From NCBI GenBank assembly GCA_963675745.2, contig CAXXWX010000003.1, positions 1 to 64,000 on the forward strand: a stretch of 64,000 bases of DNA, written 5' to 3'. The notes below the pieces were generated by a model. That model worked only from the letters and a program-made list of their open reading frames with translations. It ran no database searches and was not told the origin of the DNA. Of this stretch, positions 4,699 through 51,519 are shown piece after piece. The position numbers and the translations under genes were made by a program. Source of the stretch: Phycisphaerae bacterium (GTDB taxonomy: Bacteria; Planctomycetota; Phycisphaerae; UBA1845; Fen-1342). Numbering within the stretch: position 1 is the first letter of the stretch; every line of letters begins with the position of its first letter.

Positions 4699-4719
4699 CA
4701 GGCTCTGAGGAGTAGCCGC

Positions 4720-5361
4720 ATGCCACCTGCCGCACGTCTGACCGACACAACTCAACACGGCCCACCACTGACCCCCGGCCCGGGTAGTCTCACGGTCAGC
4801 ATCGGCTACCTGCCGGCCTGGCGCGCATTGCCGGCCAACGTCGGTTCGGGCCTTGAGCAAGCCAGCAACACGATGAACACGTTTATGAAGTCGCCCGCAC
4901 TGACTCCGCCGGATGCGACGGCGAAGCTCGTACAGGTACAGACTGGCCTGACACTGGCGGCGGGGGCGGCGGCCAACGGCAACCCCGCCGCACCGGGGGC
5001 GGTGACATCCGGCTTTGCCACGCTGACCGCAACCAACGCCGGCTTAACCGCGGCGTATGCGGCGGCATCCGCGGTCCCCGGTGGGCAGCCGGCGGCCACG
5101 CAGGCCTACACGCAGGGCATCAAGGCCGCCGCCGCGGCGACGGCCAGTGCGGCGGTTTCCGCGATTGTCGGTCAGGCTGACATGCACATGTGTCCACTTC
5201 CCTGCCCGATTCCCCCACACGGACCGGGCGTCGTGACACAGGCCAGCACGACCGTCGAGATCGATGGGCTGCCCGCCGTCCGACAGGGCGACAAGGTCTT
5301 CGAAGCCTGCGGCGGTCCTGATCCCATCGCAAAGGGCGATCCAACGGTGGACATCGGCTGA
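4720..5361 (+). CDS. PAAR-domain spike-tip protein with an Ala-rich insertion
   Basis: MPPAARLTD...GSLTVSIGYLPAWR at the N-terminus; HMCP...PPHGPG...STTVEIDGLPAVRQGD...CGGPDPIAKGDPTVDIG at the C-terminus; GAGGAG RBS. Confidence 0.9.
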   Translation: MPPAARLTDTTQHGPPLTPGPGSLTVSIGYLPAWRALPANVGSGLEQASNTMNTFMKSPALTPPDATAKLVQVQTGLTLAAGAAANGNPAAPGAVTSGFATLTATNAGLTAAYAAASAVPGGQPAATQAYTQGIKAAAAATASAAVSAIVGQADMHMCPLPCPIPPHGPGVVTQASTTVEIDGLPAVRQGDKVFEACGGPDPIAKGDPTVDIG

Positions 5362-5583
5362 CCTTTGTCAGTGACATGTCACTACCGCTGACACCGGTGG
5401 GCGTGCGGCTTGCCGCACCTTCTCTCTGTGCGGGCGAGGCCGCCGATCCAACACCCACGCGTAGCATCGTTGCATCAAGTCGTCGAACTTGACAGAATGG
5501 GTGAAGCCTCAAAGGCTCGCCGAAGGTCACCGTATTGCCCTGCTGACCGGCGTGTCGCTGGCGGCAATGGAAGGAGCGGATGG

Positions 5584-7248
5584 ATGCGGAATCGTGGACA
5601 CCTGGTGGTGAGCCCTCACCTTTATTCAATCTCGGCCGCTTATGTAATGTTCGCGGTCGCCGTGGCAGCGGCGGACGTCGCGCCGATCAACATGAACGGT
5701 CCGCTGGATGATTGGGACACGGTAAGCGTGGCGTATCTCGACCCGGCGGGTGATGGGGGGGCCAGCGGCGTCGACCTGGGACGCTTGTGGATAGCCGACG
5801 ACGATGACTTCCTGTTCCTGAGGTTTGAACTGGGTACCGAAATCGATCTGAGTGAGAACAACGATCTGCGCCTGTACCTCGACACGGACGCCAACAGCGC
5901 AACCGGCCTGGCGGTCGCCGGGATCGGGGCCGAGTTGGAATGGCGTTTCGGCGACAAGATCGGGACGTTTTACCACGCGTCCGGTTCGACGACGGTATAC
6001 CAGTGGAATCTCAATCTGCGGGGCGCGCCGACCGTTAGCGCCGATGAGTTCGAGTTCGCCGTCGGGCGTAACGTTTTGCCAGACGACACGAACCCCCTGT
6101 TTACCGGCTCGACGATCCGAGTTGCAATGCGGGAGGTGGGCGGAGACCAACTGCCCGACACCGGCGACGTTGTGGACTACACGCTCGACCAGGGGCAATT
6201 GCCGCCAGAGACGGTAATCCCGTTCGCGCGGGACGATCCGACCGACCTGCGCATTATCACCTACAACGTCCTGGTTGACTCACCTTGGGTTCCGAATATC
6301 GAGCCCAGGTTCGGCCGTCAGTTTGCCGCGGTCGTACCTGACATTCTCAATTTCCAGGAGATTTACGAGCACTCCGCCACGGAGGCCGCCGAGCTGGTCG
6401 GGCGGTGGATCGCCCCCGAACCCGGTGAAGACTGGTATGCGGCCGGCAATGCCGACTGCAAAACAGTCAGCCGCTACCCCATTCTGGGATCATGGGGGCT
6501 GGACGGCAACCTCGCCGTTCTGATCGACACTTCGGCCGCTTTGGGCAGTCAGCTACTGGTGATCAACGCACATTTGCCCTGTTGCGAGAACGACTCGGGC
6601 CGACAGAGCGAAGTCGACCGCATCATGGCCTTCATCCGCGATGCCAAGCAACCCGGTGGCTCTCTCACTTTGGCCGCCGACACGCCGATCATCATCGCCG
6701 GCGACCTCAATCTTGTGGGCTATGCCCAGCAACTGACCACCCTGCTCACCGGCGACATAGTCAACAACGGCCCGTTCGGGCCCGACTTCTCACCCGACTG
6801 GGACGGGAGCGCGCTGTACGACCTGATTCCGCGCCACACGGAAATACGCATGGGCTACACGTGGCGCGACCGCACGACTTACTTCTGGCCCGGCCACCTT
6901 GATTACATGATCAGCTCTGACGCCGTCATCGAGGTCGGCAACTACTTCACCGTTGACACCGACAACATGTCGCAGGAAAGCCTCGACGCCTATGGGTTGC
7001 AGGCTATCGACTCGCACAGTTTCGACCACCTGCTGTTCTGCGCCGACTTCCGGCCGGTATCCCCAGACCCCGGCGATTGTGATGGCGATGGCTATGTGAA
7101 CTTTGACGACTTCGTTGATCTGGATGCGTGCCTGGCAGGCCCGGACGGCGGCTTGCCGCAGCCGGATTGCTCCTGCTTCGATCTCGACGAAAACGGCGCC
7201 GTCGATCTGCGGGACTTGGGCGATTTTCAGATGCTGTTCACGGGCTGA
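5584..7248 (+). CDS. Secreted endonuclease/exonuclease/phosphatase (EEP) family protein with an N-terminal beta-sandwich domain and a C-terminal dockerin/EF-hand-like tail
   Basis: RIITYNV, PDILNFQEI, INAHL, IIAGDLN, LDYM and FDHL motifs; signal peptide; GDCDGDGYVNFDDF...DLDENGAVDLRD tail. Start uncertain. Confidence 0.8.
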   Translation: MRNRGHLVVSPHLYSISAAYVMFAVAVAAADVAPINMNGPLDDWDTVSVAYLDPAGDGGASGVDLGRLWIADDDDFLFLRFELGTEIDLSENNDLRLYLDTDANSATGLAVAGIGAELEWRFGDKIGTFYHASGSTTVYQWNLNLRGAPTVSADEFEFAVGRNVLPDDTNPLFTGSTIRVAMREVGGDQLPDTGDVVDYTLDQGQLPPETVIPFARDDPTDLRIITYNVLVDSPWVPNIEPRFGRQFAAVVPDILNFQEIYEHSATEAAELVGRWIAPEPGEDWYAAGNADCKTVSRYPILGSWGLDGNLAVLIDTSAALGSQLLVINAHLPCCENDSGRQSEVDRIMAFIRDAKQPGGSLTLAADTPIIIAGDLNLVGYAQQLTTLLTGDIVNNGPFGPDFSPDWDGSALYDLIPRHTEIRMGYTWRDRTTYFWPGHLDYMISSDAVIEVGNYFTVDTDNMSQESLDAYGLQAIDSHSFDHLLFCADFRPVSPDPGDCDGDGYVNFDDFVDLDACLAGPDGGLPQPDCSCFDLDENGAVDLRDLGDFQMLFTG

Positions 7249-10006: not shown

Positions 10007-11905
10007 CTACGGCGCGGCGGGTTCCTTCACGGCTTCGTCCATGATCGACTCCAGCACCGACTCCCCCTGGCGTTGCCAGCGCGGGACACGCCGGCCGTTG
10101 ATGAAGACGGTCGGCACGGCGCGCAGACCGACGCGTTTGCCGGCCGCGGCATCGCTGGTGATGGCGTTTGCAACGGCGGAGGTGTCCAACGCGGCGAAGA
10201 ACGCCGACGCGTCAAGCCCCATTTCATCCGCCGCGGCGCGCAAACGCTCGTCACTGAAGTCCGCCAGATTCTCGAATAGCCACACGTGCATGCGCCAGTA
10301 GGCGTCTGTGCCACCGAGAATTCCCGCGGCTGCGGCCGCCTGGTGCGCCCGGCAGGCGTGCTCATGTTTGGTGACACCCGACTGCGGGTTGCACTCCTGG
10401 TTCACCGGGTAGTGCCGGAATGTGTAACGCGCGTCATCGCGGACTGCTATGTAGTCGCGAATGATCTGGTCGACACGCGCGCTGAACGGTTCCTGGTAAT
10501 CCCCCCAGGCGACGATGTCCAGCTTCGGCGTCGGGCTGCCCATCTGTCGCGCGGGGTTGTCAGGCGGAAGCGCGAACTTGCGCTGCTCACGCCAGTCTTC
10601 GACGTACTTAACCGCCGCCGGCACCGGATGATCGTTCTCGGCGGTCAGCGGGGGCGGGTTTTCGGCGGCAACCTGCCTGATCGCACGCGCGACCGCGTCG
10701 CGGGCGTACCACCCCTTGAACTCGACCCCGTTTATGAAAATCATCGGCGTATAGTGCAGGCCGAGCTCAAAACCCTCGTCTATGTCGGCCTGCACCAGCG
10801 CCAGCGTCTCGTCGCCCATCATGATGCGTTGAAACTCGGCCACGTCATAGCCGAATTGCTGGAGGGCCGTGTGTAGTTGCGCACTGGTGAACCCGCCGCC
10901 GCGCTTGAACAGCCAATCGTGCATCTCCCAAAAGCCGTCGTTGCCGCGCAGAATACCGGCCGCCTCGGCGGCGCGCGCTCCCCAGCAGGAATTGGGGTGC
11001 GGATTGGTCGTGAAGTACGGATTGCAGTCCGGGCACATCGGGAAGTGCTTCATCGAGATCGACATGTCGTCGCGCTGCTCGAATACGCGGTGCAGTTCCG
11101 CCTCGACTCGCCGACAGTCCTTGCACTGAAAACTGCTGAAGACCACGACGCGGATGGCGGCCTTCTCCGGGCCGCGCCGATAGCGACCGGTGAACGGCGG
11201 GGTGACCGGCTCCGGGGACGCGGCCGTGGTGCTTGATTCATTGGCTGGCTGCGTATCAGGCACCTCGGACGGCGCGGTCGTCACCTCGATGTCGGTGCGT
11301 TGAGTAGTGGCGGCGATGATCTTACCTATCGACTCGTTAAGCTCAGTCTCGCCGCGTTGCTGGCGCGCGGCACGCTGGCGCCCGTCGGCGATGCCCAGGC
11401 CGGCGGAAACGACGACAAATGCCAGCAGGGCGAGCACGATCGGCCGGGCGCCAGTGCCGTCACCGCGCTTGCCACCCGCCTCGACCAGCAGCCAGAACAC
11501 CAGGTTTCCGGCGTGGGTCGCGAGGCAATAGCTGCACACCTGCTGCTTGGCAATCATCACAATGACGAACAGCACCGAAGCGAGCGCACCGGCGCGCGTC
11601 ACGTTACGGAGGAGGGCGGGCAATCGACTGCCCGTGGCAAACCAGGCGACCAGCGCGCCGGCGAAGTAAGCCACGCCGAGATAGGCCACGGGCCAGTTGA
11701 GTATGGGGATTTTCGACCAGGCGCTGTCGGCCAGCTCGGCGCAGGCGCTACCCTCGCCGCAACCGGGCAGCGCGATGCCGCCCAGATGCTCCAGCGCCAT
11801 CATCACCGCCGCGAAGGCGCTGACCAGCAGCGCCGCGACGCCCAGGGAGAGACGCGTCGGGGAACCACCACCGGAGTTACGACGATTTTCAGTGTGTGAC
11901 TGCAT
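10007..11905 (-). CDS. VKOR-DsbA-DsbA fusion (disulfide bond formation)
   Basis: VKOR loop Cys pair (GCGEGSAC), S.WS and CSYC motifs with TM helices; DsbA domain 1 FSSFQCKDC...HFP...YTP; DsbA domain 2 WGDYQEPFS...HYP...VPT. Confidence 0.85.
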   Translation of the reverse strand: MQSHTENRRNSGGGSPTRLSLGVAALLVSAFAAVMMALEHLGGIALPGCGEGSACAELADSAWSKIPILNWPVAYLGVAYFAGALVAWFATGSRLPALLRNVTRAGALASVLFVIVMIAKQQVCSYCLATHAGNLVFWLLVEAGGKRGDGTGARPIVLALLAFVVVSAGLGIADGRQRAARQQRGETELNESIGKIIAATTQRTDIEVTTAPSEVPDTQPANESSTTAASPEPVTPPFTGRYRRGPEKAAIRVVVFSSFQCKDCRRVEAELHRVFEQRDDMSISMKHFPMCPDCNPYFTTNPHPNSCWGARAAEAAGILRGNDGFWEMHDWLFKRGGGFTSAQLHTALQQFGYDVAEFQRIMMGDETLALVQADIDEGFELGLHYTPMIFINGVEFKGWYARDAVARAIRQVAAENPPPLTAENDHPVPAAVKYVEDWREQRKFALPPDNPARQMGSPTPKLDIVAWGDYQEPFSARVDQIIRDYIAVRDDARYTFRHYPVNQECNPQSGVTKHEHACRAHQAAAAAGILGGTDAYWRMHVWLFENLADFSDERLRAAADEMGLDASAFFAALDTSAVANAITSDAAAGKRVGLRAVPTVFINGRRVPRWQRQGESVLESIMDEAVKEPAAP

Positions 11906-12173
11906 GCGGGCGTGCTCCGCGTAATCTTCGCGCTGATTGCTCGGTGCCGGGGACAATCGATGTGCAGGCTAGCACGATGTAACAATCATGCGATTATATA
12001 GCAACACAGCAACGCGGTACGGTACTGCGTGGCAATCAGAGCGGGGAATCAAAGACCGACGTGCCGGTCGCAGATCATGCCAAGCCGGACTTTGGCACAC
12101 ATCAGACCGCATACGGCGCTGTGGTGTCGTCACATGCCACATCGAAGCATGACGTTCGGAGCGCCGCAGCCGA

Positions 12174-20911: not shown

Positions 20912-22086
20912 GCCGCTGGTTATCCGCAGCCCTGACGTTGATCATCGCGGCCTCGAGTGCCTGGGCGGCTGACCTGACAGGCAACGTCTCGTCCGAACAG
21001 GCCGAGGCGGCAATCGAGAGGGCCATCGACTTCCTGCTGCGCGATCAGAACGCCAACGGGTCCTGGGGCGGACCGCGCGCGTCGGTCTACTCGTTCGGCG
21101 GCGGGATTTTCTCAAACCCCGAGGCCCATCGCTCCTGGGTAGTGGCAACGACCGGATTGGCAACGCTGGCACTGTTGGAGGCGGGCGACACACCCGAAGC
21201 CTACGCCGCGGTTGATCGCGCGCTTGACTATCTGACTGCCAATGCCGATCTCAAGCGGCCCAGTGAGTTCGAGACGTGGAACAACTGGGGCCACATCTAT
21301 GGGCTTCAGGGGCTGGTGGCCGCTTATGCGCACCCGCGCTACGCGAACTCCCCGCGGCGTGACGCGATCAAAGCCGCCGCCGAACTTCATTTGCACAAGT
21401 TGGGCGAGTACCAGGCGCTCAGTGGCGGCTGGGGGTACCTGGAGGGCGCTCTGCCGCGCACCCGCACGCCCCAATGGTCGGCGAGCTTCATGACGGCGGC
21501 GGCGGTGGTGGCGATGTACGAGGCCCGCGAGGCCGGCTTCGATGTTGATCAGCGGATGTTCGGCCGCGCGGTGCGGGCGGTCAAACGCGCGCGTCTGCCG
21601 AGTGGGGCCTACACGTATACCGTGCGCGCCGTGCCAACGCCGCGGCGCTGGGTATCCATCAACAACATCAAGGGCTCTCTCGGGCGAATCCCGCTGGGTG
21701 ACCTGGCGCTGCGCTTCGGCGGAGAAGACGTGCCGCTGGAGCAGTTTCGCACCGGAATAGCCCATTTCTTCCGCGAGCATCGCTTTCTCGATATAGCGGT
21801 ATACAAGCCGATCCCGCATGAGGCCTATTACCAGAACTCCGGTTACTTCTACTACTTCGGGCATTATTACGCGGCCCGCGTGATCGAGCTGCTACCCGCC
21901 GAGGAACAGGCACTCGCCTGGCCGCGGCTGCGCTGGGAGGTGCTCAAATACCAGGGCGCCGATGGGGCGGCATGGGATTACGGGATGCACGCGTACCACA
22001 AGCCGTACGGGACCGCCTATGCGTTGCTCGCGCTGGACCGGTCGGTGCGTGCAGAGACCCCGCCGGTCGAGGCTGCGCAACCGTAG
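20908..22086 (+). CDS. Prenyltransferase/squalene oxidase (alpha-alpha toroid) repeat protein
   Basis: FLLRDQNANGSW, Q..SGGWGY and QGADGAAW repeats; GTGA overlap with the upstream gene. Confidence 0.8.
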   Translation: MSRWLSAALTLIIAASSAWAADLTGNVSSEQAEAAIERAIDFLLRDQNANGSWGGPRASVYSFGGGIFSNPEAHRSWVVATTGLATLALLEAGDTPEAYAAVDRALDYLTANADLKRPSEFETWNNWGHIYGLQGLVAAYAHPRYANSPRRDAIKAAAELHLHKLGEYQALSGGWGYLEGALPRTRTPQWSASFMTAAAVVAMYEAREAGFDVDQRMFGRAVRAVKRARLPSGAYTYTVRAVPTPRRWVSINNIKGSLGRIPLGDLALRFGGEDVPLEQFRTGIAHFFREHRFLDIAVYKPIPHEAYYQNSGYFYYFGHYYAARVIELLPAEEQALAWPRLRWEVLKYQGADGAAWDYGMHAYHKPYGTAYALLALDRSVRAETPPVEAAQP

Positions 22087-22107
22087 TGGAGATATCGATA
22101 ATCTGAT

Positions 22108-22416
22108 GTAGCTCCCGCGGCAGGCATATCCAGCGACGGCGGCATGCCAATGCAGCGGCCGGCGGCAAGCAGATGTAGCGCCCGGCGCCCCACCAATGTA
22201 ACGGCCGGCGCCTCGCAAATGTGACGGCCGGCGCCTCGCCGGCCGTGGAATGTTGATAACGTCATTTCACGCCGACTGGCCGCGAGGACCAGGCTCGCGC
22301 GCAAGGTTGGCGTGACTGTGGCAACTCGACGGCGACGGCCTGCGAGGCGCAGGCCGCTACACGGATAGGGGTCCGCTGCACGGATGGGGGGCCGGCTACG
22401 GGGTGGCGGCCGGCCG
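22108..22416. repeat. Cluster of REP-like GT(A/G)(G/A)C-led palindromes between convergent genes
   Basis: GTAACGGCCGGCGCCTCGC, GTGACGGCCGGCGCCTCGCCGGCCG, GACGGCCTGCGAGGCGCAGGCCGCTAC. Confidence 0.65.
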
Positions 22417-24120
22417 TTACGGCGCCGGCGGGTAGGTGAAGTTCACGTGGCGCACGCCGTGGCAGGTCAGCGTGCATGAGCCGGCAAAGCGGCCCTGATC
22501 AACAAAGAATCGCTCACCGCCGACGATCGACACATCGAAATTGATCAAATGACTGTGTTGCGAAGTGTTGCCGGACACGCCGTGGGCCGTGTGGCAGGCG
22601 CTGCACGGCGTGCGCCCGTTGACCACGTGCCGGCGATGGAAGCTGAAGCTCTCGTCGTTGAGAATCGAGTTGCGGTCGTGGCAATTGTAGCACAGCGCGT
22701 ATGACCGGGCTGACTCGATCGTGAAGTCACGCGTCTCGTAGGCGTCCACCAGCAGGTAATCGAATCGTGAGCCGTGTGGACCGTTGACCTGCGTGCCGCC
22801 TTCGGCCAGCGCATCCGGGTTGTTGTGGCAGTCCTGGCAATTGACGTAGCGCCGGCCGCGCTGCTCCGGTAGCAGGCTGGGCACCTGGTCAAGATTGCGG
22901 CTGGGTATGGCCACCGGGTGGGCGGACGCCGCGGTCGGCACAAACTGACGCCGCACATTACCGCCGGAGTCGCGCTGCCGAATAATGCGGTCAGGTACGA
23001 TGGCCGGGCGGTCGGCATGGCAGCGGAAGCAGACCTCGTAGTACAGCCGCGCCGTCTCGACCGGCGCGCCCGAGATGTTGACGCCCGGAACAGCCCGCAT
23101 GGCGGGAGGGATCTCCGGGCCGCGCAGCGCCGCGCGCAGGTTGCCCTGGAGCTTGTTGCGTCCGACGGCGTGGGGGTTGTGGCAATCGGCGCACTCGACG
23201 AAGCGCGCGACGCGGAAGCGCCGCCGTGGATCACGCCGATCCTCCCATAGCTTGTTCACGCGATGGCCGGAGCGCTGGTCGAGCACGGGTGCGATGTCGG
23301 CGCCGGCGATGCCGTTGTGGCAGTTGATGCACAACTGTGAGCTGCGATCGTAGAGCAGTCGCTCGCGCTGGGGCGCGCTGTGTGGCAGATGGCAGGCACG
23401 ACAGGCGTTGTCGGCCATCGAGCGGTAGGGGAGCTGCTGGCCGGCGGTCGCCGTAATCGGCACGCCGCGCGGACTGACCGCGTGGGCGCTATTGCGCCAG
23501 CCGGTCATGTCGTGGCAGGTCATGCAAAGGGCGCCGGTGCGCTCGGTAATGCGCAGAAAGTCACCGAGCTCGTTGTTGTGTGGATCGTGGCAGGCGACAC
23601 ACTCCAGTTCGCCACGCTCGCCGAGATGCACGCGGTGGTCAACCAGTTGCGGCGGCCGCAGTTGTGGGTCGCGGTTTGAAAGCGTGCGATCGAAGCGAAA
23701 CCCGATGGGGTGATCGTCGGACAGGTCATTGGTGAGGTCGCTGGGACCGGTGGGCATGTACACGTGCGTCATGGGGATCGGGTCGGCGCGGTGCAGCGTG
23801 AGGCCCAGCGCGATACTGCCATCGTGACAGCTCAGGCACTGTTTGCTTTCGGGACCGGGTTGATCAATGCGGGCATCGGTGGTGCTGCTGCGGTAGATGC
23901 GATAGTAGGTCGTGGGGTTGTGGCGATTCCACAGCGGCGCGGCCGGGCTGGCATTGTGCGGCACGTGACAGAAGATGCAGACGCGGCTGTCGTTGACCGC
24001 GCGCACGGGGCCGGGTCCGAACGATGAGAGATCGTGCTTCGAGTTGAGCACGGTGTCGTCGGCATTTGCGCCCGCGGCCCCCGCCAGCAGGCAGATCAGC
24101 GTCACGTACGCGAACTTCAT
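22417..24120 (-). CDS. Multiheme cytochrome c (11 CxxCH + 1 CxxxCH) with an N-terminal OmcE-like tetraheme module
   Basis: Signal peptide; NSKHDLSS...CIFCHVPHNA...PLWNR...CLSCHDG...DLSDDHPIGF...LECVACHDPHNN...FLR...LCMTCH, then 8 further heme motifs. Confidence 0.92.
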   Translation of the reverse strand: MKFAYVTLICLLAGAAGANADDTVLNSKHDLSSFGPGPVRAVNDSRVCIFCHVPHNASPAAPLWNRHNPTTYYRIYRSSTTDARIDQPGPESKQCLSCHDGSIALGLTLHRADPIPMTHVYMPTGPSDLTNDLSDDHPIGFRFDRTLSNRDPQLRPPQLVDHRVHLGERGELECVACHDPHNNELGDFLRITERTGALCMTCHDMTGWRNSAHAVSPRGVPITATAGQQLPYRSMADNACRACHLPHSAPQRERLLYDRSSQLCINCHNGIAGADIAPVLDQRSGHRVNKLWEDRRDPRRRFRVARFVECADCHNPHAVGRNKLQGNLRAALRGPEIPPAMRAVPGVNISGAPVETARLYYEVCFRCHADRPAIVPDRIIRQRDSGGNVRRQFVPTAASAHPVAIPSRNLDQVPSLLPEQRGRRYVNCQDCHNNPDALAEGGTQVNGPHGSRFDYLLVDAYETRDFTIESARSYALCYNCHDRNSILNDESFSFHRRHVVNGRTPCSACHTAHGVSGNTSQHSHLINFDVSIVGGERFFVDQGRFAGSCTLTCHGVRHVNFTYPPAP

Positions 24121-25205
24121 GATGACTCCTCGGGCAGATACTGGAAGACCTGCACGCGGCGATTGTAACCATCCGCGACCCAGATGCGATCGCGCTCGTC
24201 AATTGAGATGCCGGCCGGAAGCGAGAACTCCCCGGGGGCTGGCCCGCCACGACCGAAGGCCATCAGCAAGTGGCCGGATTTGTCAAAAATCTGCACGTTT
24301 TCGAATTGGTTGTCCAAGACGTAAACGTGTCCCGCCGAGTCGATGGCCACATCGCGCGGGCGGGCGAAGTCGCCGGCGGCGTCACCGCGCTGGCCGAACA
24401 CCACCTGCGGTTGATCGTCGGCTCCCAGCACCTGAATTCGGAAGTTCATCGCATCAGCCACCACGACGCCGACCAGCGGATGGGCCGCGACGGCCGAGGG
24501 GTAGTTGAACTCGCCCGGAGCTCCGCCGCGCCGCCCGACCGCACGCGGTACGCTGTGAGCATCCGGCATGTCAAAGCAGGCGTGGGCCTTCGCATCGGCG
24601 ATCCACACGGTTCGGCGCTGGTCGTCCCACGCGATGGCCACGGGAGCGACAATCTCGGGCCGGCGTACTGTTTCGCGCCAGTTGCCGTCAAGGTCAAACA
24701 TGTCGATCGCCCCCCGCGCGCGATCCACTACCAGCAGCGTGTCGCCGTGCGCAATTGCCACATCTAGCGGGGCGTTGAGAGGGTCTTGTGGCGTACCGCT
24801 GATCAGACGGTATTCCCGCGTGTTCAGGTCAAGCAGGTGTACGGCCGCCAGCCCGGTATCGGCAACGTAGACGCGCTCACCCGAGATGGCCACGGCGACC
24901 GGCTGGGAAAACTCTATCTTTGGGCGTGGGCCGGCGATGACCTCGCGTAGTGCTCCCCAGCCGCTTTCCCTGACGCCAAGACTGGCCTCGCCGCGCAGTT
25001 CACCGATGTAGCGAATACGCGGGCGATCTGGGGGGGATGGCCAGACGATTGGGGGGGTGATCGGTGGGAAAATCTGCTTGGGGGTCGATTGACATCCGCC
25101 GGGAGCGAGCAGTGCGGCGAGCACAACAAACAACGTCAGTCCCCCACGGCAAGCCGTGGGGCACCCTGGTTCCCTCCCCGGTACACGGATCGGCGTGCGT
25201 GTCAT
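24117..25205 (-). CDS. NHL-repeat beta-propeller lipoprotein
   Basis: GGC lipobox; WPSPPDRPRIRY; repeated GEFNYPSAVA, GDFARPRDVA and GEFSLPAGIS; ATGA overlaps on both sides. Confidence 0.92.
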   Translation of the reverse strand: MTRTPIRVPGREPGCPTACRGGLTLFVVLAALLAPGGCQSTPKQIFPPITPPIVWPSPPDRPRIRYIGELRGEASLGVRESGWGALREVIAGPRPKIEFSQPVAVAISGERVYVADTGLAAVHLLDLNTREYRLISGTPQDPLNAPLDVAIAHGDTLLVVDRARGAIDMFDLDGNWRETVRRPEIVAPVAIAWDDQRRTVWIADAKAHACFDMPDAHSVPRAVGRRGGAPGEFNYPSAVAAHPLVGVVVADAMNFRIQVLGADDQPQVVFGQRGDAAGDFARPRDVAIDSAGHVYVLDNQFENVQIFDKSGHLLMAFGRGGPAPGEFSLPAGISIDERDRIWVADGYNRRVQVFQYLPEESS

Positions 25206-27316
25206 CGCCGGTTCCTCGCGAGCAGCGGGATCTCGCGTTTCAGCTTGATCCAAAACGCCGCCCCATCATCGCGCGAATCCGGCAGATACAGCAGGTCATA
25301 CTCGGCCTCAAAGAGCAGCGAGAAATGGCCGATCTCCCACTCCACGGCCCCGCTGAAATCCACGCCGTGCGTATCGCCATACAGCGAGTCATCTTCAAAG
25401 CGATACATGGCGGTCGCGCTGGCCTCCAGGTCGCGCGTCAGCAGGTAGCGATATGACAGCCCCAGATCGAGCAATGATGTATTGCGCGGCTCGAGCCCTT
25501 CGGAACCGTCGAACCAGAAGCGCGAGAAATTGGCCTTGCCATCGAGCTGCTGGCGCGCGTCGTGGAGGATCACGACATCACCATTGAGGTGCATGGCCTG
25601 GTAGGGATCGATCGCGTCGTCGTTGAATTCATACTCGGCGCCGACCGACCAGCGCCTTTGCTTGTACGTCGCCCCGATGCGGTGGCGGTTGACGTTGCGC
25701 GCCCGGAAGTGCAGATACGCCGAGTCGTCGAGATCCTCGTTCTGAATCGAGCCCGCATAGTATGGCGACAGCCCGAAGTCGAAGTCCTGCTGGAGGCGCC
25801 AGTCCAGCCGGTGCCGCACGAGGTCGTAGTTGCTGAACACGCGGTAGGTATATGTGACCAGGACAGTTTCGCGATCGGCAATCTGCCCGGTGGCGACGCG
25901 TTGTAGCGCGGTGTAGCGTCCCAGCGTGACGACGACATAGTCGCGCCCGGGGAGGTATGTGCGTGTGCGGCGCGCGTCTGAAACGACGACGCTGGCCATA
26001 TCGACGTCCATGTGCGCGAGATAGCTGACCAGCGGATCACGGAACGTGACGGACTCACCGATGATCACGCCGTGCTGCTCGCCGTCATCAGAGCTTATCG
26101 AGCTGTAGTTATACGAGAGATTGGCCCGAAACCGCCCGAGATCGTTGGGTTTGGAAAAAGCGGCGCTGGCCAGCACGCCCCATTCGTCAAGGTCGGCGTT
26201 CTCGTCGGCCAGCTCGTGCATGCCGTAGCCCTGGAGGGTGGTGGTCAGCATGTCATCGAGCTGGTGCGTGAGCCCGGCTTCGCCGCGCCAGGTGGTGGTG
26301 GTGAGCTCTTCGAACGACTCGCGCAGGAACTGAAAACGGTAGTTGGTCTGGAGCGCGTCGGTGTGTTGGAGACGCAGCAGCGATGAAACCTCGGCGACAT
26401 CGCGGGCCAGATCGCCCGACTCCTCCTGAAAGCGCGCCAGGGTCTCCAGCGAGCTGCGCTTGTCAGCGCCGAAACGCAGCGTGTGGTTGAGCGTCAGGTA
26501 GTGCCGGCGCGTGTCGAAGCGCGTATCGCCGCCGGAGTATTGCTCACTACGATCCTCGTATTGATACTCGAGGCGCAACGCGTGGCTGTCACTGATCTGC
26601 CAGGTGCCTTCGTACGAGAAACGATCCTGGCCGCGCTCTTCGTCATCGTGCAGATCGCGCGTGCGACTGGTCAACTCATCCCAGGCGTGCTCGAACGAAA
26701 ATCGCATGGGAAACGTGCGGTCGTTGAACAAAACGTCAACGCCGTAGCGCTCGTAGGTGCGGTCGAGACTGGGCAGGAAAGCGCGCGGCACGCGGCTGTC
26801 CTGGCGTTTGGCATACATGGTTGCGGAAAGCTTGCCGCGCGGGAAGAGCGTGATGAGGGCGTCGTATTCGAGCAAGTCGCCGTTTGCGGCGTCCCGGCGA
26901 TCGGGGCCGGGCACTATCTCGGTGAAGCGCTCCTGCGTCAGTCCCCAGTCCAGGCCCAGGTCGAAATCGAGCACATCTTCGCCGAGCAGCGTGCCGGCCG
27001 CCCGCAGTCCGATGGTCTCCTCGAAGCGCCGGTTGCGGTTGGTCTGGTAGTAGGATCGGTTGGAACCGGTCGGCGCGCCGGTGCGCACGCGGCGCTGGTC
27101 GTAAGCGGCTTCGAAGCCCAGCTCCAGCGCCAACTCGTCGAATTCCAGCAACGAGGATTGCGTTGCGCCCGGTGGGGCGTCGGCGGCGGAGGTCGAACTC
27201 GGCTGAGTGGTCGGCTGTGTGCTCGGCTGAGTGGTGGCATTGGCGTCAGCCATTGCCCCTGCTTGGCAACACAGCACACTGAGAACTGCCGCTAGGAGAA
27301 CCGCGCGTCGCAACAT
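25202..27316 (-). CDS. Putative outer-membrane beta-barrel (porin-like) protein
   Basis: Signal peptide from ATG 27316; TTQP linker; alternating hydrophobic/aromatic beta-strand pattern over ~650 aa, ending FWIKLKREI. Confidence 0.7.
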   Translation of the reverse strand: MLRRAVLLAAVLSVLCCQAGAMADANATTQPSTQPTTQPSSTSAADAPPGATQSSLLEFDELALELGFEAAYDQRRVRTGAPTGSNRSYYQTNRNRRFEETIGLRAAGTLLGEDVLDFDLGLDWGLTQERFTEIVPGPDRRDAANGDLLEYDALITLFPRGKLSATMYAKRQDSRVPRAFLPSLDRTYERYGVDVLFNDRTFPMRFSFEHAWDELTSRTRDLHDDEERGQDRFSYEGTWQISDSHALRLEYQYEDRSEQYSGGDTRFDTRRHYLTLNHTLRFGADKRSSLETLARFQEESGDLARDVAEVSSLLRLQHTDALQTNYRFQFLRESFEELTTTTWRGEAGLTHQLDDMLTTTLQGYGMHELADENADLDEWGVLASAAFSKPNDLGRFRANLSYNYSSISSDDGEQHGVIIGESVTFRDPLVSYLAHMDVDMASVVVSDARRTRTYLPGRDYVVVTLGRYTALQRVATGQIADRETVLVTYTYRVFSNYDLVRHRLDWRLQQDFDFGLSPYYAGSIQNEDLDDSAYLHFRARNVNRHRIGATYKQRRWSVGAEYEFNDDAIDPYQAMHLNGDVVILHDARQQLDGKANFSRFWFDGSEGLEPRNTSLLDLGLSYRYLLTRDLEASATAMYRFEDDSLYGDTHGVDFSGAVEWEIGHFSLLFEAEYDLLYLPDSRDDGAAFWIKLKREIPLLARNRR

Positions 27317-27494
27317 GCATCCTGCCGTGAAATGCCCGCCAGACCGCGTGCGGGACGTGATGCTGGGCAGGCTACCGGGCAATTCGCACGCTGTCCAGTT
27401 GACGGGAGTTTCCTGTCGCCAGCGTTGTGGGTGGCTCGCGGCGCGGCTATAGTCATGGCCGCAGTCTGGCCCCACATTCGTGAGGAGAGCGCCT

Positions 27495-28202
27495 ATGAGA
27501 CGCGGGTGGGCAAACGGCTTTCCCCGATCAGCTCTGGTTGTTGTGGGCATAGCGGTCGCAGCCACCGGAATGTTGATTGCTCAAGATGCCGAACGCACGA
27601 CGGATGCCAACTCCACACGGGAACAACCCACAACGCAGCCCAGTGCCGCGGCCCAGCCTGATCCCGTGCCGGCCGACGCGGCGCGCCAGCGGCTGCTGAG
27701 CGGGCTCATCAGCAGCAAGCACGACTTTTCAGGCGCTGGCGAAGATGGGCGGGCGCTCTGCCTGCCCTGCCACGCGCCACACCGTGTCGATGCCGAAGCG
27801 CCGCGCCTGGATCAGCGGGCGCAAACCGCGCAACCGTTGACACCTTACCGAGCGCGGGATGTGGAGCTGGACGGCTGGTCGCTGCTATGCCTCGGCTGCC
27901 ACGATGGTGTGACTGCCGTAGGCGTGTACTCTACGGGCCACGCGATCACGATTGCGGGTCAGTTGGGCAATTCGCGGCTGGGCACCAGCGGGCTGCGCAG
28001 CCACCCGGTGGGCAACAAATACCCGGAAGGTCGGCCCGACTATCAGCCGCGGGCCGCGGTTGAAGCTGCGGGGTTGCTTATGCCCGGCGGTCACATCCAG
28101 TGTGGCACTTGCCACGATGCGCACAACACGTACGGCTATACGGGGATGCTGAAGATTTCGAACGAGCGAAGCCGCCTGTGTCTGACATGTCATCGTCTCT
28201 AG
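27495..28202 (+). CDS. Tetraheme cytochrome c, OmcE-like
   Basis: GAGGAG RBS; signal peptide; SSKHDFS, CLPCHAPH, SLLCLGCHDG, SHPVG, IQCGTCHDAHN, SRLCLTCH. Confidence 0.92.
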   Translation: MRRGWANGFPRSALVVVGIAVAATGMLIAQDAERTTDANSTREQPTTQPSAAAQPDPVPADAARQRLLSGLISSKHDFSGAGEDGRALCLPCHAPHRVDAEAPRLDQRAQTAQPLTPYRARDVELDGWSLLCLGCHDGVTAVGVYSTGHAITIAGQLGNSRLGTSGLRSHPVGNKYPEGRPDYQPRAAVEAAGLLMPGGHIQCGTCHDAHNTYGYTGMLKISNERSRLCLTCHRL

Positions 28203-30214
28203 GGAATCACCGGCGCGGGCCGTATCGCACGATTTCGGTCGGCGCTGGAGTGGCGCTGCTTTCCGCCGGCGCGCTGTTGGGCCCGCTCATGTGCGGTTGC
28301 CACGACGGCCGGCCGGAGTGGGGGGCGCGCGACACGTGCCTGTATCCTCCCGCGCCCCAGACGCCACGCGTGGTGAGCCTGGGCACGTTGCGCGGCGCGC
28401 CGCCGCCGAGCGACACGGAAGTGCAGGTGGCGCTGTTTCTATTCGGGACTCAGCCGCCGACACCGCTGGCGCTGGCGAATCCCACGGGGTTGGCAGCCAC
28501 TGATGACGGACTGCTGGTTTGCGATGCAACCTTGCGAGCGGTGTTCCACTGGGACGCTGCCAGCGGCGAAGTCAGCGAACCTAGTTGGGCCGGCGCGGTG
28601 CAGGCACCGCTGGCAATCGACGTGGCGTCCAACGGTGATCGGCTGGTGTGCCACGACGGCGGCGTGTTGCGGATCGACGGAGCCGGGCATGCCGTACAAT
28701 CCTACGCGCTCGCGGACGATTCGCTTCGTCCGGGTGGCGTACTCGCAGTCGGCGAGCAGGTGTGGGTGACAAATCTCGCATTGCACCGGATTGAGATCTT
28801 CGACGCGGCGTCCGGTTCGCATCTTCAGTCAATCGGCAAGCGCGGCAGCGCGCCGGGGGAGTTTTCGTTTCCGCGCGGGATGGCGCTTACGCCCGAAGGC
28901 AACATCTGTGTCGTCGATATGCTGAACGGCCGCGTGCAAGTGCTTTCGCCGATGGGTGATTTCGTGCGCATGATTGGTCAGGCCGGCAACGTTGTCGGCA
29001 CGTTCGGCCGCCCGAAAGACATTGCCGTCGGACCGGACGGGACGGTGTTCGTCACTGACGCATTCTTGCAGCGCGTCCACGTGTTTGACGCGCGCGGTGT
29101 GCCGCTGATGGCCTTTGGCGAGCCGGGATGCGGGCGCGGCGCGTTGTCACTGCCGCACGGCATCACGATTGCGACCAGCGCGCCGCACACAGAGTACGAG
29201 CCCCCCGACGATCTGACGCCACAGTATTACGTGCTCGTGGCCGAGCAACTGGAGAATCCGGGTGTGCGCGTCTTCGGCTGGTTGGGGGCCGATGAGCCGG
29301 CACGGCACGCCGCACTCCCCTCGGGAGAACGGCTCGAATGGCAACCACACTTCCCGGACTCGGTCGCCATCAACCCCCATTGGCGGGCTGACCGTTGCAC
29401 AACGTGCCACGAAAGCCAGGGTAGCGGTCTTGTGCCGATCAGACCTGCGGATAGCGACGCGCTCTGCCTGTCGTGCCACGACGGCGTGCAGGCACCCGCC
29501 GACCCGCATCCCATCGGGCGACCGGCCAACACCGACCTGGTGAAGTCGCCGGACAACTGGCCCACCATCAAAGGGGCCATCGGCTGCATCACTTGCCATG
29601 ATGTCACGCCACACTGTAACAAGGCGGCCAAACGCCCCGAGACGAACTACGTGTTGCTGCGCGACTACGACCCGCGCGAATCGCTTGACTACTGCACCAT
29701 CTGCCATCAACCCGACGCCGGTGGACGCTTCAGCCCGCACCGACAGCGCGACCCGGGCGGCCAGGTGCGCGAAGAGGCGTGTTTCTTTTGTCACACGCGG
29801 AAACCCGAGATCCCCACAGACGGCCGGCGTCAATTCAGGCCCCACTTGCGCGTCGAGTCGTCGGACTTGTGCTTGAATTGCCACAGACAGCACTGGGACA
29901 TGTCGCCGCTGGGGCATGTGGACCGACCGGTGACGCCGGCGATTCGCCAGTGGATGTTGATGCGCGAATTGGCCCGCCAGAGCGACGCGTCGCGCGAGAC
30001 ACTCGCCAAGCTGGCCCGCGATTCGAGCCGCCAGCCGGCGCGCCTGCCGTTGGCCGACAACAAGGTAACCTGCTATACGTGCCATAACCCGCATTACATG
30101 GGCCTTTTTCCCGCCAACAGCGAGCTTGGCGCGTTGGCCCACAATCCGCGCGATCGCGCGGTGGCTCTGCGGACTGACTGGGTTGATCTGTGTTCCGAAT
30201 GTCACAATCGGTGA
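28187..30214 (+). CDS. NHL beta-propeller / octaheme cytochrome c fusion lipoprotein
   Basis: MCGC lipobox-like; YPPAPQTPRV; NHL repeats; CTTCH, CLSCH, CITCH, CTICH, CFFCH, CLNCH, CYTCH, CSECH. Confidence 0.88.
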   Translation: MSSSLGNHRRGPYRTISVGAGVALLSAGALLGPLMCGCHDGRPEWGARDTCLYPPAPQTPRVVSLGTLRGAPPPSDTEVQVALFLFGTQPPTPLALANPTGLAATDDGLLVCDATLRAVFHWDAASGEVSEPSWAGAVQAPLAIDVASNGDRLVCHDGGVLRIDGAGHAVQSYALADDSLRPGGVLAVGEQVWVTNLALHRIEIFDAASGSHLQSIGKRGSAPGEFSFPRGMALTPEGNICVVDMLNGRVQVLSPMGDFVRMIGQAGNVVGTFGRPKDIAVGPDGTVFVTDAFLQRVHVFDARGVPLMAFGEPGCGRGALSLPHGITIATSAPHTEYEPPDDLTPQYYVLVAEQLENPGVRVFGWLGADEPARHAALPSGERLEWQPHFPDSVAINPHWRADRCTTCHESQGSGLVPIRPADSDALCLSCHDGVQAPADPHPIGRPANTDLVKSPDNWPTIKGAIGCITCHDVTPHCNKAAKRPETNYVLLRDYDPRESLDYCTICHQPDAGGRFSPHRQRDPGGQVREEACFFCHTRKPEIPTDGRRQFRPHLRVESSDLCLNCHRQHWDMSPLGHVDRPVTPAIRQWMLMRELARQSDASRETLAKLARDSSRQPARLPLADNKVTCYTCHNPHYMGLFPANSELGALAHNPRDRAVALRTDWVDLCSECHNR

Positions 30215-30252
30215 GCCGGCCGGGTGCCAGTTCGCCGGCTTGGGAGAGTCGC

Positions 30253-31575
30253 ATGGTTTCGCATCGAGTGCCATTGCCAATCCTGCTGAAGGTGAGCACG
30301 ACGGCGGCCATCATCATCGCCGTGTCATCACTGACTCTCGTCGGCGGCTGTCCGGCGCGCACTGGAACCGATGGGCCCAATTCGCTTGTGTTCAACAACA
30401 GCACCGATCCCACCAATGGCGGAGCGCGCTATATCGGATCGAGCGCCTGCATCGCGTGTCATGCGCAGATCTGCGAGACGATCTGCAAGCACGGGCACTC
30501 GCACGCGCTAACCCCGACCGAGGGCCTCGCGCCGGTGTACTCGCCGGCCGGCACGCGCGCCGGCGTGCCTGATCCACCGGCCGGAAAGACATGGAGCGAC
30601 GTCAGCTATGTGATCAGCGGCTACCTGCTGAATGCGTTCTTTGTCGACGCGTCCGGGTTCATCATGACCGACGGCGTGGATGGTGTGAACACGCAGTGGA
30701 ATCTGGACTTCCCCGCCAACGGCACCGCCGCCGGTTTCGTCGCGTATCATCCCGAGCAGACAACGCCGTTGCCGTACGATTTCGCGACCTGCTTCCGTTG
30801 CCACACGACCGGCCCGCAGGCACAGGATCCCAACAACCCGCGATCCCAGGACGGCCGACCGGGCATCCTCGGCACCTGGGCCGAGGCCGGCGTCAGGTGC
30901 GAAGCCTGTCACGGCCCGGGCTCCTACCACGCGCCCAGCCCCCAGGCACGCAACATCTTCGTCGACTCAACCTCCAAAACGTGCGGACGCTGCCACACCG
31001 CCGGCGACGATCCCAACACCATCCTGGCGACCGATAGCGGCTACATCCGCTCGAACTCACAATACCCCGAGCTGCGCGCCAGTGGCGGGCACGCGCAGTT
31101 CAGTTGCATGGTGTGCCACGACCCACACGCGTCAATGGCCTATGACCAGGGCAATGGTTGGCGTAATCGCTGCAACGTCTGCCACACCGACAACAACATG
31201 GCCTTTCACAGCGGCCTCGTCTTCCGTTGGGGTGACTACGAAGAGGAATTGAGCTGCAAAAGCTGCCACATGCCGCTCGCCGGGCGCAACGGCTCAAACG
31301 CGTCGGTTGATGTGGTCGGGCGCGAGGCGCGCGTCGGCGACGTACACTCGCACATCTTCCGCATCGACGCCCAACACGGGCGTTATGCGGCCATGCTGAG
31401 TCAGGACGGAACCAGTGTCGTGAAAGACGCGTCGGGCCGGGCGGCGTTGACGCTGGATTATGTGTGTTTGCGTTGTCATCACGGCGCGGGCAATGCCTTC
31501 ACGCTATCAGCCGACGGAGCACCGGTGATCGCGCGCGGCATGCACGAAAACGCCGCCGCCGCGAACCGTGACTAG
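30253..31575 (+). CDS. Octaheme cytochrome c lipoprotein (c554/c552-like)
   Basis: VGGC lipobox; YIGSSACIACH, CFRCHTTG, GVRCEACHGPGS, CGRCH, CMVCHDPH, CNVCH, CKSCHMP, CLRCH. Confidence 0.9.
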   Translation: MVSHRVPLPILLKVSTTAAIIIAVSSLTLVGGCPARTGTDGPNSLVFNNSTDPTNGGARYIGSSACIACHAQICETICKHGHSHALTPTEGLAPVYSPAGTRAGVPDPPAGKTWSDVSYVISGYLLNAFFVDASGFIMTDGVDGVNTQWNLDFPANGTAAGFVAYHPEQTTPLPYDFATCFRCHTTGPQAQDPNNPRSQDGRPGILGTWAEAGVRCEACHGPGSYHAPSPQARNIFVDSTSKTCGRCHTAGDDPNTILATDSGYIRSNSQYPELRASGGHAQFSCMVCHDPHASMAYDQGNGWRNRCNVCHTDNNMAFHSGLVFRWGDYEEELSCKSCHMPLAGRNGSNASVDVVGREARVGDVHSHIFRIDAQHGRYAAMLSQDGTSVVKDASGRAALTLDYVCLRCHHGAGNAFTLSADGAPVIARGMHENAAAANRD

Positions 31576-31715
31576 CGCGGTTTCAGTAATGACGCGGTGG
31601 CTTACACTGTCGGGGTGGGTCGGGCGTCTCGCCCGACTTCGACGAAAGCAGTACATAGGCGGGCGGGACGCCCGCCCCACCCGCGTATGGGCAACGGACT
31701 GTTGTTGAAACCGCG
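31576..31715. mobile_element. MITE-like element (copy 1) carrying a REPIN
   Basis: Terminal inverted repeats CGCGGTTTCA...TGAAACCGCG; preceded by CTAG and followed by CCAG; near-identical to 42988-43120. Confidence 0.75.
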
Positions 31716-31767
31716 CCAGCCCGGGTCACCAGTTCCCGCACAGCAGTAGCGGCCAACCCGCACAGCG

Positions 31768-31794
31768 GTAGCGGCCGACCCCCGAGTCGGCCGT
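31768..31794. repeat. REP palindrome
   Basis: GTAG-CGGCCGAC-CCCCGA-GTCGGCCG; truncated copy at 31746. Confidence 0.8.
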
Positions 31795-31847
31795 AGAGCG
31801 CCCACATGGCCACCGCGCCCGCTCAAACCGCGGTCCGGCCCGCTGAT

Positions 31848-32285
31848 TCAACCCTCATACACAAAGTCAATCTTCACATCGACGCGCGGGTCGAGGCTCT
31901 GCTTAACCGGACACAACTCGGCGGCACGTTCGAGCCGCTGGCGGTTCTCCGGCGACAGCGGGCCACCGTTCGGAATCACCACCGTTACTGTCAGCGAGCC
32001 GATACGCCGTCGCGGGTCGGCGACCATCTCCTTTACGACGTTTACGCGTGTACCGCTGATGTCCAACTCGTGCCGCGTCGCGATCAGCCCCATGATCGTG
32101 ACGATGCAGGTGCCCAGGGCCGTACCGACCAGGTCGGTCGGCGAGAATGCGGCGCCTCGGCCACCATTATCGAGTGGAGCGTCGGTAGTCAGCACCTGCC
32201 CGGATGGCGCGTGCGTCGCCGAACAGTGCAGGTCGCCCTCGTACGTGATATCAACCTCAACCGCCATGTGCCATCTCCGATTCAA
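31848..32285 (-). CDS. OsmC family protein
   Basis: TTDAPLDNGGRG.AFSPTDL...LGTC...CPVKQSL; likely start MAVEV. Confidence 0.92.
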   Translation of the reverse strand: MNRRWHMAVEVDITYEGDLHCSATHAPSGQVLTTDAPLDNGGRGAAFSPTDLVGTALGTCIVTIMGLIATRHELDISGTRVNVVKEMVADPRRRIGSLTVTVVIPNGGPLSPENRQRLERAAELCPVKQSLDPRVDVKIDFVYEG

Positions 32286-50038: not shown

Positions 50039-50039
50039 A

Positions 50040-51472: not shown

Positions 51473-51519
51473 GGCAGCGGTAACCTCCCGAGCTAAGCGC
51501 GACAAATTGTGCCGGGCCT

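Follow-up and report, generated by a model that had tools for sequence, protein, structure and literature searches.

The window analysed here, the first 64 kb (64,000 nucleotides) of a 274-kb contig from a Phycisphaerae bacterium, carries between positions 22417 and 31575 six long, tightly packed open reading frames (ORFs), A to F, in two divergent arms. The minus-strand arm encodes, in this order, a large predicted outer-membrane barrel (C), an NHL propeller (B) and a cytochrome with twelve haem motifs (A, the dodecahaem), and the plus-strand arm a tetrahaem cytochrome (D), an NHL propeller fused to an octahaem part (E) and an octahaem cytochrome (F). Judged by homology and gene order, the cluster is neither an orphan nor a new kind of system, but a variant of an OmcE-type module that occurs across phyla.

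An earlier note on this DNA had described six genes in two tight divergent arms, separated by about 180 bp and encoding exported proteins with 31 CxxCH motifs and one CxxxCH motif in total. All six ORFs were found, and the divergent gap measures 163 bp, or 178 bp if gene D begins at its alternative start codon. A script count returned the identical motif total, with four CxxCH in D, eight each in E and F, the remainder in A, and none in B or C. Export is suggested by a hydrophobic stretch, read by eye only, at all six N-termini, directly followed by a cysteine in B, E and F. With the likely internal starts, adjacent genes within each arm overlap by 4–16 nt; for C this start is the ATG at ORF residue 84. 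The source gene call for the barrel (P0241, 683 aa) begins instead at the ATG of ORF residue 105, which removes the signal peptide supplied by the ATG at residue 84. The third-position codon GC is 0.71–0.82 in all six frames, similar to the remainder of the window. A scan of positions 22000–32200 for sigma-70 promoters and terminators, uninformative for this phylum, gave one promoter-like site where 1.6 were expected; the divergent gap contained no such site.

Table 1. Positions of the six genes and of their parts in the window (aa, amino acids)
Feature	Position	Strand	Description
Gene A	22417-24120	-	ORF of 567 aa; secreted dodecahaem cytochrome, 11 CxxCH + 1 CxxxCH
Gene A, N-terminal OmcE-like tetrahaem domain	23509-24057	-	residues ~22-204
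Gene A, C-terminal octahaem part	22420-23508	-	residues 205-567
Gene B	ORF 24117-25253; likely 24117-25205	-	NHL beta-propeller, lipoprotein-like N-terminus; likely start ATG 25205
Gene C	ORF 25202-27565; likely 25202-27316	-	large predicted outer-membrane beta-barrel, 704 aa from ATG 27316
Gene C, conserved insert	25838-26047	-	residues ~425-495 of the 704-aa form
Divergent intergenic gap	27317-27479		163 bp; presumed shared promoter region
Gene D	27480-28202	+	OmcE-family tetrahaem cytochrome, precursor of 240 aa; alternative ATG 27495
Gene E	ORF 28100-30214; likely 28187-30214	+	NHL propeller-octahaem fusion, lipoprotein-like N-terminus; likely start ATG 28187
Gene F	30190-31575	+	octahaem lipoprotein-like cytochrome, partly OcwA-like; start uncertain (30190, 30199 or 30253)

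OmcE relatives and their partners

Both A and D match solved filament cytochromes. In phmmer searches of the PDB, residues 8–204 of A align with residues 11–231 of the 232 in 7tfs_A (E 2.7e-29, 105 bits) and A matches 9yuq_N at 5.3e-24, while D matches 9yuq at 1.2e-9 and 7tfs at 1.8e-9. A Foldseek search with the model of A returned 7tfs, ‘OmcE nanowires from Geobacter sulfurreducens’, as its sole significant match. According to the accessible part of Petersen et al. 2026 (PMC13712944), 9YUQ is the OmcE bundle of Desulfuromonas soudanensis, and the hallmark of the OmcE family is four CxxCH motifs together with four further conserved haem-ligating histidines. Aligning the OmcE domains of 20 family members, we found C48/C51/H52, C95/C98/H99, C174/C177/H178 and C199/C202/H203, together with H29, H55, H137 and H181, to be invariant, and the N-terminal domain of A and D both retain all eight haem ligands of the family. 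These plain matches, in sequence for both proteins and in fold for A, support the relationship to OmcE that the earlier note had proposed for the cytochromes.

The two relatives differ in their build. D is a stand-alone protein that ends ‘CLTCHRL’ right behind its fourth haem motif, as OmcE does, and has a T/P/Q-rich linker of approximately 45 aa between the signal sequence and the first conserved histidine. A exceeds the size of a stand-alone OmcE (~200–230 aa) by 363 further residues with eight haems, located after the OmcE domain; D and the N-terminal domain of A are 29 % identical (E 1e-15). Against the OmcE of G. sulfurreducens, the D. soudanensis filament-former scores 118 bits (a G. sulfurreducens-type OmcE compared with 9yuq), the head of A 105, the tetrahaems of two Desulfuromonadia loci, L154 and L096, 77 and 49, and D 41. 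A quick IQ-TREE phylogeny built from 85 OmcE domains places the dodecahaem heads in a single group within the tetrahaems, and sets the G. sulfurreducens OmcE beside this group with weak support (SH-aLRT 86). D belongs to a long-branched clade of the window’s order (support 99) in which the PLWN motif is lost. The number of histidines per OmcE domain, 9 in OmcE, 10 in D and 13 in the N-terminal domain of A, was tried as a means of separating an ‘anchor’ from a subunit and is not discriminating.

All 12 haem motifs of A and 11 further histidines are invariant in 35 of 35 aligned homologues, with H495, H498 and H558 near-invariant, a ligand pattern that fits either a closed monomer or a histidine swap between chains. 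The CxxxCH motif (CTLTCH at residue 549) is likewise invariant in all 35, which come from many phyla, and is therefore no chance motif. In two loci of f83, another family of the phylum (L039:9359-11181 and L040:8703-10540), the dodecahaem is encoded as an OmcE-like gene of ~250 aa and an octahaem gene of ~394 aa in different frames; either A is therefore the product of a fusion, or the two genes are that of a fission.

The barrel C has no family in a Pfam search and no match in a PDB sequence search. Its AlphaFold2 model (mean predicted local distance difference test score, pLDDT, 87.2; predicted template modelling score, pTM, 0.76) is all-beta, with approximately 30 long antiparallel strands. 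Foldseek ranks LptD (1.9e-9) and MtrB (6r2q_B, 6.4e-9, rank 2) at the top, alongside TonB-dependent receptors and the FimD usher (E ~1e-9 to 1e-8). Because VIA-align gives Z scores of 15–18 to many large barrels and favours none, we regard the modelled C as a generic very large outer-membrane barrel; the earlier note had likewise called it a barrel. An F or W at the C-terminus is the usual barrel-assembly signal, and one of the two is the last residue in 28 of 42 barrel homologues across phyla. Conservation within the barrel family peaks in an insert of about 70 residues of short strands (Table 1), in which D459, Y460, R473, G477 and Y489 are near-invariant across phyla, and which may serve as a docking domain for a partner; an NCBIfam phage tail-tube model matches it below threshold (28 against 60 bits). 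The ESM Atlas clusters nearest to C are unnamed hypothetical proteins, and Porin_4, found on 33 % of the members of a cluster at score 0.88, is a lead only.

In Pfam searches B and E show NHL repeats, and generic multihaem models match all four cytochromes (A, D, E and F). B (PF01436, E 1.1e-22) has an N-terminus, ‘...LLAPGGC’, that by eye is lipoprotein-like, and in almost every related locus a propeller gene of its type immediately precedes that of the dodecahaem. In E the NHL match (9.3e-12) lies in the N-terminal half (~385 aa), and the C-terminal ~290 aa hold eight CxxCH motifs at ORF residues 433–702. The earlier note’s NHL lipoprotein and NHL–octahaem fusion were accordingly recovered, with the lipoprotein cysteine judged by eye. 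With A, D and F the haem tail of E gives pairwise BLAST matches of E 3e-4 or weaker, and the idea that the tail is a grown pentahaem is unsupported, as a pentahaem profile gave only repeated-motif matches in the cluster. Residues 79–274 of F match 6i5b_A, the ‘Outer Cell Wall Cytochrome OcwA’ of Thermincola potens, at E 3.5e-11, and F matches 6qvm at 8.1e-5 (phmmer). OcwA has nine haems; the match covers less than half of F, which has eight CxxCH motifs and a lipoprotein-like N-terminus and belongs to a diderm. F-like genes occur only in the closest relatives of the window’s cluster.

Occurrence in Phycisphaerae and across phyla

The dodecahaem is a regular possession of the lineage. Counted at E <= 1e-30, it is present in 16 of the 18 genomes of the window’s family, in 12/12 and 9/12 genomes of the two main sister families, and in 38 of the 44 sampled genomes of the order, compared with 21 of 256 in the rest of the class; an even phylum-wide sample gave 16/401, G000 counted. 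The core of barrel, NHL propeller and dodecahaem always stands together in 15 relatives. The layout of the window, namely two divergent operons without a pentahaem and with the first NHL propeller fused to an octahaem (E), recurs, fusion included, in seven loci of the closest relatives (L026, L029, L041, L042, L043, L047 and L051), and the OcwA-like F is added in most loci of this layout. A profile of 20 pentahaems found only motif-level matches, and no true homologue, in the cluster or the genome.

To place the cluster more widely, one genome per species was scanned with the OmcE-domain alignment, which gave at least 625 confirmed stretches, and the best 80 were kept as loci, their parts being scored with local profiles. 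These 80 are biased toward relatives of the N-terminal domain of A, and many of their missing parts fall at contig ends. Within them we found the barrel in 67, an NHL propeller in 76, the dodecahaem (~565 aa, with the OmcE domain N-terminal) in 73 and an OmcE-like tetrahaem in 55, and in 48 the barrel, at least two NHL propellers, the dodecahaem and the tetrahaem occur together. A small cytochrome stands directly upstream of the barrel in 36, and is a pentahaem in 32 of these. The usual order is tetrahaem – NHL – pentahaem – barrel – NHL – dodecahaem.

The best 80 loci span 12 named phyla. Planctomycetota account for 46, followed by Pseudomonadota (9), Verrucomicrobiota (5), Ignavibacteriota (4), Bacteroidota (4), Myxococcota (2), Calditrichota (2), Thermodesulfobacteriota (2) and one each of Kiritimatiellota, Chlorobiota, Lentisphaerota and Ca. 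Eiseniibacteriota; two are unlabelled. The exact six-gene order is found in the Desulfuromonadia, in a Geobacteraceae metagenome-assembled genome (MAG; L096) and two genomes of the same order (L154, L155). Barrel C is homologous to the barrels of all three loci, that of L096 being detected over its full length at E 1.2e-52 by a profile built without it. Between the window and six distant loci, identity is 34–45 % for A, 29–39 % for the second NHL propeller, 25–35 % for the tetrahaem and 21–28 % for the barrel, and A is the most conserved part of the module. In four loci (L045, L052, L053 and L069), ORFs with 20–24 haems that match the OmcE-domain profile, three of them also matching NHL, lie a few kb from the module.

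The accessible part of Petersen et al. (PMC13712944) describes a minimal omcE cluster that includes two beta-propeller lipoproteins and two further multihaem cytochromes, and reports omcE contexts in five phyla, among which that part of the paper does not name Planctomycetota. The dodecahaem (D12-type) module of our loci fits these ‘smallest’ clusters, and the window likewise has two NHL propellers (B and E) and a large barrel; of the pentahaem and dodecahaem of the D12-type module it has only the dodecahaem A, and the octahaem tail of E and F are extra. With the D12-type module of the Desulfuromonadia the window shares an OmcE-family tetrahaem, two NHL lipoproteins, a barrel of ~680 aa without a Pfam family and a dodecahaem of ~565 aa, with the identical order barrel – NHL – dodecahaem, and all five common parts match their counterparts by pairwise BLAST or profile. 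It departs from that module in its split divergent operons, the missing pentahaem, the fusion E, the added F and a fast-evolving D. The earlier note had seen a self-contained module in a lineage for which it knew no characterised equivalent; the module is not, however, an invention of this lineage, since its genes recur with little change of order in at least 12 named phyla and a Desulfuromonadia cluster of like composition is described in the accessible part of PMC13712944. The synteny survey that the note had proposed recovered the core across Planctomycetota loci and 11 other named phyla. What is new is the lineage and the layout: two operons without a pentahaem, an NHL–octahaem fusion and an added OcwA-like octahaem. 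In the portions available of the literature on OmcE in Planctomycetota and on multihaem extracellular electron transfer (EET) in Phycisphaerae, no description of the cluster in this lineage was found.

A second layout is represented by L151 (G693:C1:645000-664999), a G. sulfurreducens-type omcE locus whose tetrahaem matches 7tfs_A over its full length with 518.9 bits. Its order is purD, purE, trihaem, resB, ccsB, 11-haem, 8-haem, NHL, OmcE, a 755-aa ORF and glycosyltransferases, which matches the gene setting given in the accessible part of Petersen et al. (PMC13712944). Comparison with L096, L154 and L155 therefore reveals two layouts in the Desulfuromonadia, and the window is of the dodecahaem type. 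Both it and the G. sulfurreducens locus have an OmcE tetrahaem beside an NHL propeller, further multihaems and a large protein without a Pfam family. No glycosyltransferases adjoin the window’s cluster, the nearest being 17 kb off (48716-51505). The 11-haem and 8-haem proteins of L151 match the pentahaem profile at 1e-46 and 5e-32, and by sequence look like expanded relatives of the D12-type pentahaem lipoprotein.

Three further systems invite comparison. The MtrCAB system of Shewanella and the Pcc systems of Geobacter also encode a large outer-membrane barrel together with a Sec-exported multihaem rod and lipoprotein cytochromes, and in structure C has MtrB, and the C-terminal part of A has MtrA, among its best matches. 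Unlike them, the window’s cluster has NHL propellers, OmcE domains and a barrel of ~30 strands, MtrB having 26; and the NCBIfam models for MtrA/DmsE (TIGR03508) and MtrC/OmcA (TIGR03507) reach at best 54.3 bits against a cut-off of 192.2 and at most 15 bits against 209.3, respectively. In Desulfovibrio ferrophilus IS5, starvation for electron donors induces the clusters DFE_448-451 and DFE_461-465, which encode two NHL propellers along with seven multihaem cytochromes and have been linked to electron uptake from electrodes (PMC5815863, accessible part). They are alike by description, combining multihaem cytochromes, one of 12 haems, with two NHL propellers, and differ in the electron-uptake role proposed for them and in that the accessible part of that paper mentions no barrel. 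FeGenie ‘DFE’ models, derived from these clusters, have flagged Phycisphaerae MAGs, which are reported to carry ‘DFE variants’ (10.1101/2022.03.26.485925, accessible part). Lastly, the available part of a preprint describes an Acidobacteriota ‘porin-scaffold-cytochrome’ cluster, EET1, and the Verrucomicrobiota clusters EET3 and EET4 (bioRxiv 10.64898/2026.05.27.727921), which are conserved and, compared by description, comprise a porin, a scaffold and OmcE-like, MtrA-like and OcwA-like cytochromes of 8–13 haems and are expressed in peat. These belong to other phyla than the window; two Limisphaerales loci of our set (L084 and L113) carry the D12-type module.

Host genome and neighbouring genes

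The assembly comprises 5.2 Mb in 28 contigs and is 91 % complete with 6 % contamination. The contig with the cluster has a GC content of 0.631, within the range of 0.626–0.645 over all contigs, and the cluster is flanked by ordinary housekeeping genes, including futalosine-pathway menaquinone genes, ribonucleotide reductase, DnaK and a prepilin-type N-methyl protein. The closest homologues of A are full length and 62–75 % identical, a range that holds across the 119 best-ranked 90 %-identity clusters besides the window’s own, which are mostly metagenomic; those of C are 49–64 % identical, and the best-matching genome loci 72–79 %. The nearest homologues of A and C and the best-matching loci are labelled Phycisphaerae, Phycisphaerales or Planctomycetota at source. 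A misbinned Desulfobacterota fragment is therefore excluded, and the contig is not chimeric. The matching GC, the Phycisphaerae-labelled relatives and the 12-haem gene in nearly every genome of the family agree with the lineage to which the earlier note had assigned the DNA.

Haem proteins are abundant elsewhere in the genome, which has 22 ORFs with at least three CxxCH and 226 motifs in total, including ORFs with 46, 23 and 20 haems. Maturation and quinol-side genes had been expected outside the cluster, and a CcsA-type assembly gene was found on contig C26 (778375-779106, 97.6 bits, within a 636-aa ORF) and a weak NapC/NirT match in a 7-haem ORF on contig C16. The CcsA-type gene belongs to a second multihaem island (C26:778375-794130), outside the window, with four ORFs of 6–8 CxxCH and a 1063-aa ORF with 20 CxxCH that matches the NHL and OmcE-domain profiles. 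The same contig carries a 1799-aa ORF with 46 CxxCH (C26:165480-170879), and contig C6 a 932-aa ORF with 23 CxxCH and a weak OmcE-domain profile match at 1.5e-12 (C6:156945-159743).

Three other loci in the window deserve mention. Of four large plus-strand ORFs at positions 963–7248, the one at 4720-5361 contains a PAAR motif (1.7e-8) and those of 719, 544 and 612 aa fall into no Pfam family; the locus may be a secreted-toxin or Rhs-like one. A 649-aa protein (10007-11956) consists of a VKOR domain fused to two thioredoxin/DsbA-like domains, a disulfide-forming system that could serve exported proteins. At 59029–61259 two genes of the futalosine route to menaquinone encode a PF02621 protein and an MqnC/CofH-like radical SAM enzyme, as would fit an anaerobic respiratory chain based on menaquinone.

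A candidate electron path and its alternatives

Our data are consistent with a model, held with moderate confidence, where the six genes are a Phycisphaerae variant of the OmcE-type module that likely carries respiratory electrons from the periplasm through the barrel to OmcE-like haem proteins, whose assembly outside the cell would give a wire. In this model the barrel C would be the outer-membrane pore or anchor, with the NHL lipoproteins B and E helping in assembly or serving as a scaffold. The C-terminal octahaem rod of A would lie in or under the barrel, a placement suggested by MtrA, the best VIA-align match of residues 191–567 (6r2q_A; Z 6.8, root-mean-square deviation 4.8 Å, 213 aligned residues); the next matches of the model are OmcE for residues 14–204 (Z 5.0) and OmcS (Z 4.8). 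The OmcE-like head of A would be outside and contact D, which, by analogy with OmcE, would polymerise via His-to-haem links between subunits. F, as an OcwA-like lipoprotein, could act as a surface terminal reductase, the role described for OcwA as a surface-exposed protein in the accessible part of PMC6703420. The octahaem tail of E may stand in for the pentahaem lipoprotein that is encoded upstream of the barrel elsewhere, and genes at other sites of the genome would provide for haem attachment and quinol oxidation. Electrons would flow outward, or inward as in D. ferrophilus.

Several observations weigh against this model. What is known here of the cluster comes from homology, predicted fold and synteny alone, and everything beyond these we infer. 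The model of A is poor, with a mean pLDDT of 65 and values below 50 over residues 45–138, and the Z of 6.8 for its rod lies in the range (Z <8) that possibly reflects a mere common arrangement. The long branch of D, the loss of a PLWN motif that other OmcE relatives keep and the unusual linker put its polymerisation in doubt; either D or the head of A may be the wire-forming protein. The pentahaem present upstream of the barrel in 32 of the best 80 loci is missing from the window’s cluster. L151, the locus of a verified filament-former, has no dodecahaem and a different layout, and an alignment of the barrel family with its 755-aa ORF gave an hhalign probability of 1 %, a weak test with a single-sequence template. 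Lastly, ResB was not found in the 91 %-complete genome.

The same parts could instead form a porin–cytochrome conduit without a filament, an explanation that is possible, if somewhat doubtful, in which A would sit in C as MtrA does in MtrB, with D, F and the haem tail of E as monomeric partners on its two faces, and electrons would exit only at the cell surface. The MtrA match of the C-terminal part of A, the presence of MtrB among the best Foldseek matches of C and the divergence of D all favour it, and the 12 haems of A are matched by 12 conserved candidate distal histidines (11 invariant, with H495, H498 and H558 near-invariant), making a closed monomer possible. In D. ferrophilus, moreover, a 12-haem and a 14-haem cytochrome of the NHL-containing clusters were found in the outer-membrane fraction and read as MtrA-like (PMC5815863, accessible part). 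However, A and D lack none of the haem ligands of the OmcE family, both solved members of which are filaments, the NCBIfam scores for MtrA/DmsE (54 against 192 bits) and MtrC/OmcA (15 against 209 bits) stay far below their cut-offs, and the MtrB match of C is no better than its match to TonB-dependent transporters. The earlier note had read the cluster as a module for a haem wire: its basis in OmcE homology stands, A and D matching solved filament subunits, whereas a filament rather than a mere porin–cytochrome conduit is something that we infer. Its interpretation is essentially right.

Two other explanations keep the haem proteins and change what they do. It is improbable, in our estimate, that the machinery runs inward, with minerals, Fe(0) or partner cells as the source of electrons, a role put forward for the NHL-containing cytochrome clusters of D. 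ferrophilus IS5, although DFE clusters with multihaems and NHL propellers are tied to electron uptake (PMC5815863) and ‘DFE variants’ are reported in Phycisphaerae MAGs (10.1101/2022.03.26.485925); the accessible part of the latter source classes DFE hits as reductive EET and, of 139 Phycisphaerae operational taxonomic units, finds only 3 with putative proteins for oxidative EET. The direction of electron flow is not readable from sequence, and the likeness to DFE is by description only. We consider it very improbable that the cluster is a periplasmic multihaem enzyme system for a soluble nitrogen or sulfur compound, with F as its catalytic octahaem and the barrel as an unrelated porin. F resembles OcwA (E 3.5e-11), which belongs to the NrfA/octahaem reductase lineage, and A has weak VIA-align matches to HAO and NrfA-type proteins (Z 2.3–3.7). 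Yet no NrfA, HAO or OTR family model exceeds its cut-off in Pfam or NCBIfam, F is restricted to the closest relatives whereas the barrel, NHL propeller, dodecahaem and tetrahaem co-occur across phyla, and OmcE homology is the strongest signal.

A more far-reaching version of the filament model makes A the missing root of OmcE nanowires. Its MtrA-like rod would sit in the barrel, its OmcE head would be the first membrane-anchored protomer, and the tetrahaems would polymerise on that head by His-to-haem ligation. We think this unlikely as it stands. The D12-type clusters encode this candidate root protein, and no other part of them is as conserved; if the proposal is true, a single protein wires periplasm and filament together, in Phycisphaerae as in all phyla with the module.

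Phycisphaerae are common in anoxic sediments, soils and wastewater, are mostly uncultured and are usually read as fermenters or polysaccharide degraders. The occurrence of the module in most sampled genomes of the order, the conservation of A among its closest homologues and the 22 multihaem ORFs of this genome make the lineage a candidate for respiration with minerals, humic substances or partner cells, and the module genes can serve as markers in metatranscriptome searches. The barrel family has no Pfam model, despite 2007 cluster representatives at E <= 1e-30 among 1.84 billion in a profile search. The fusion in A of an OmcE domain to an MtrA-like rod suggests, in a form open to test, how OmcE filaments could be anchored and receive their electrons. 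Overall, Phycisphaerae that carry the cluster likely pass respiratory electrons through their outer membrane.

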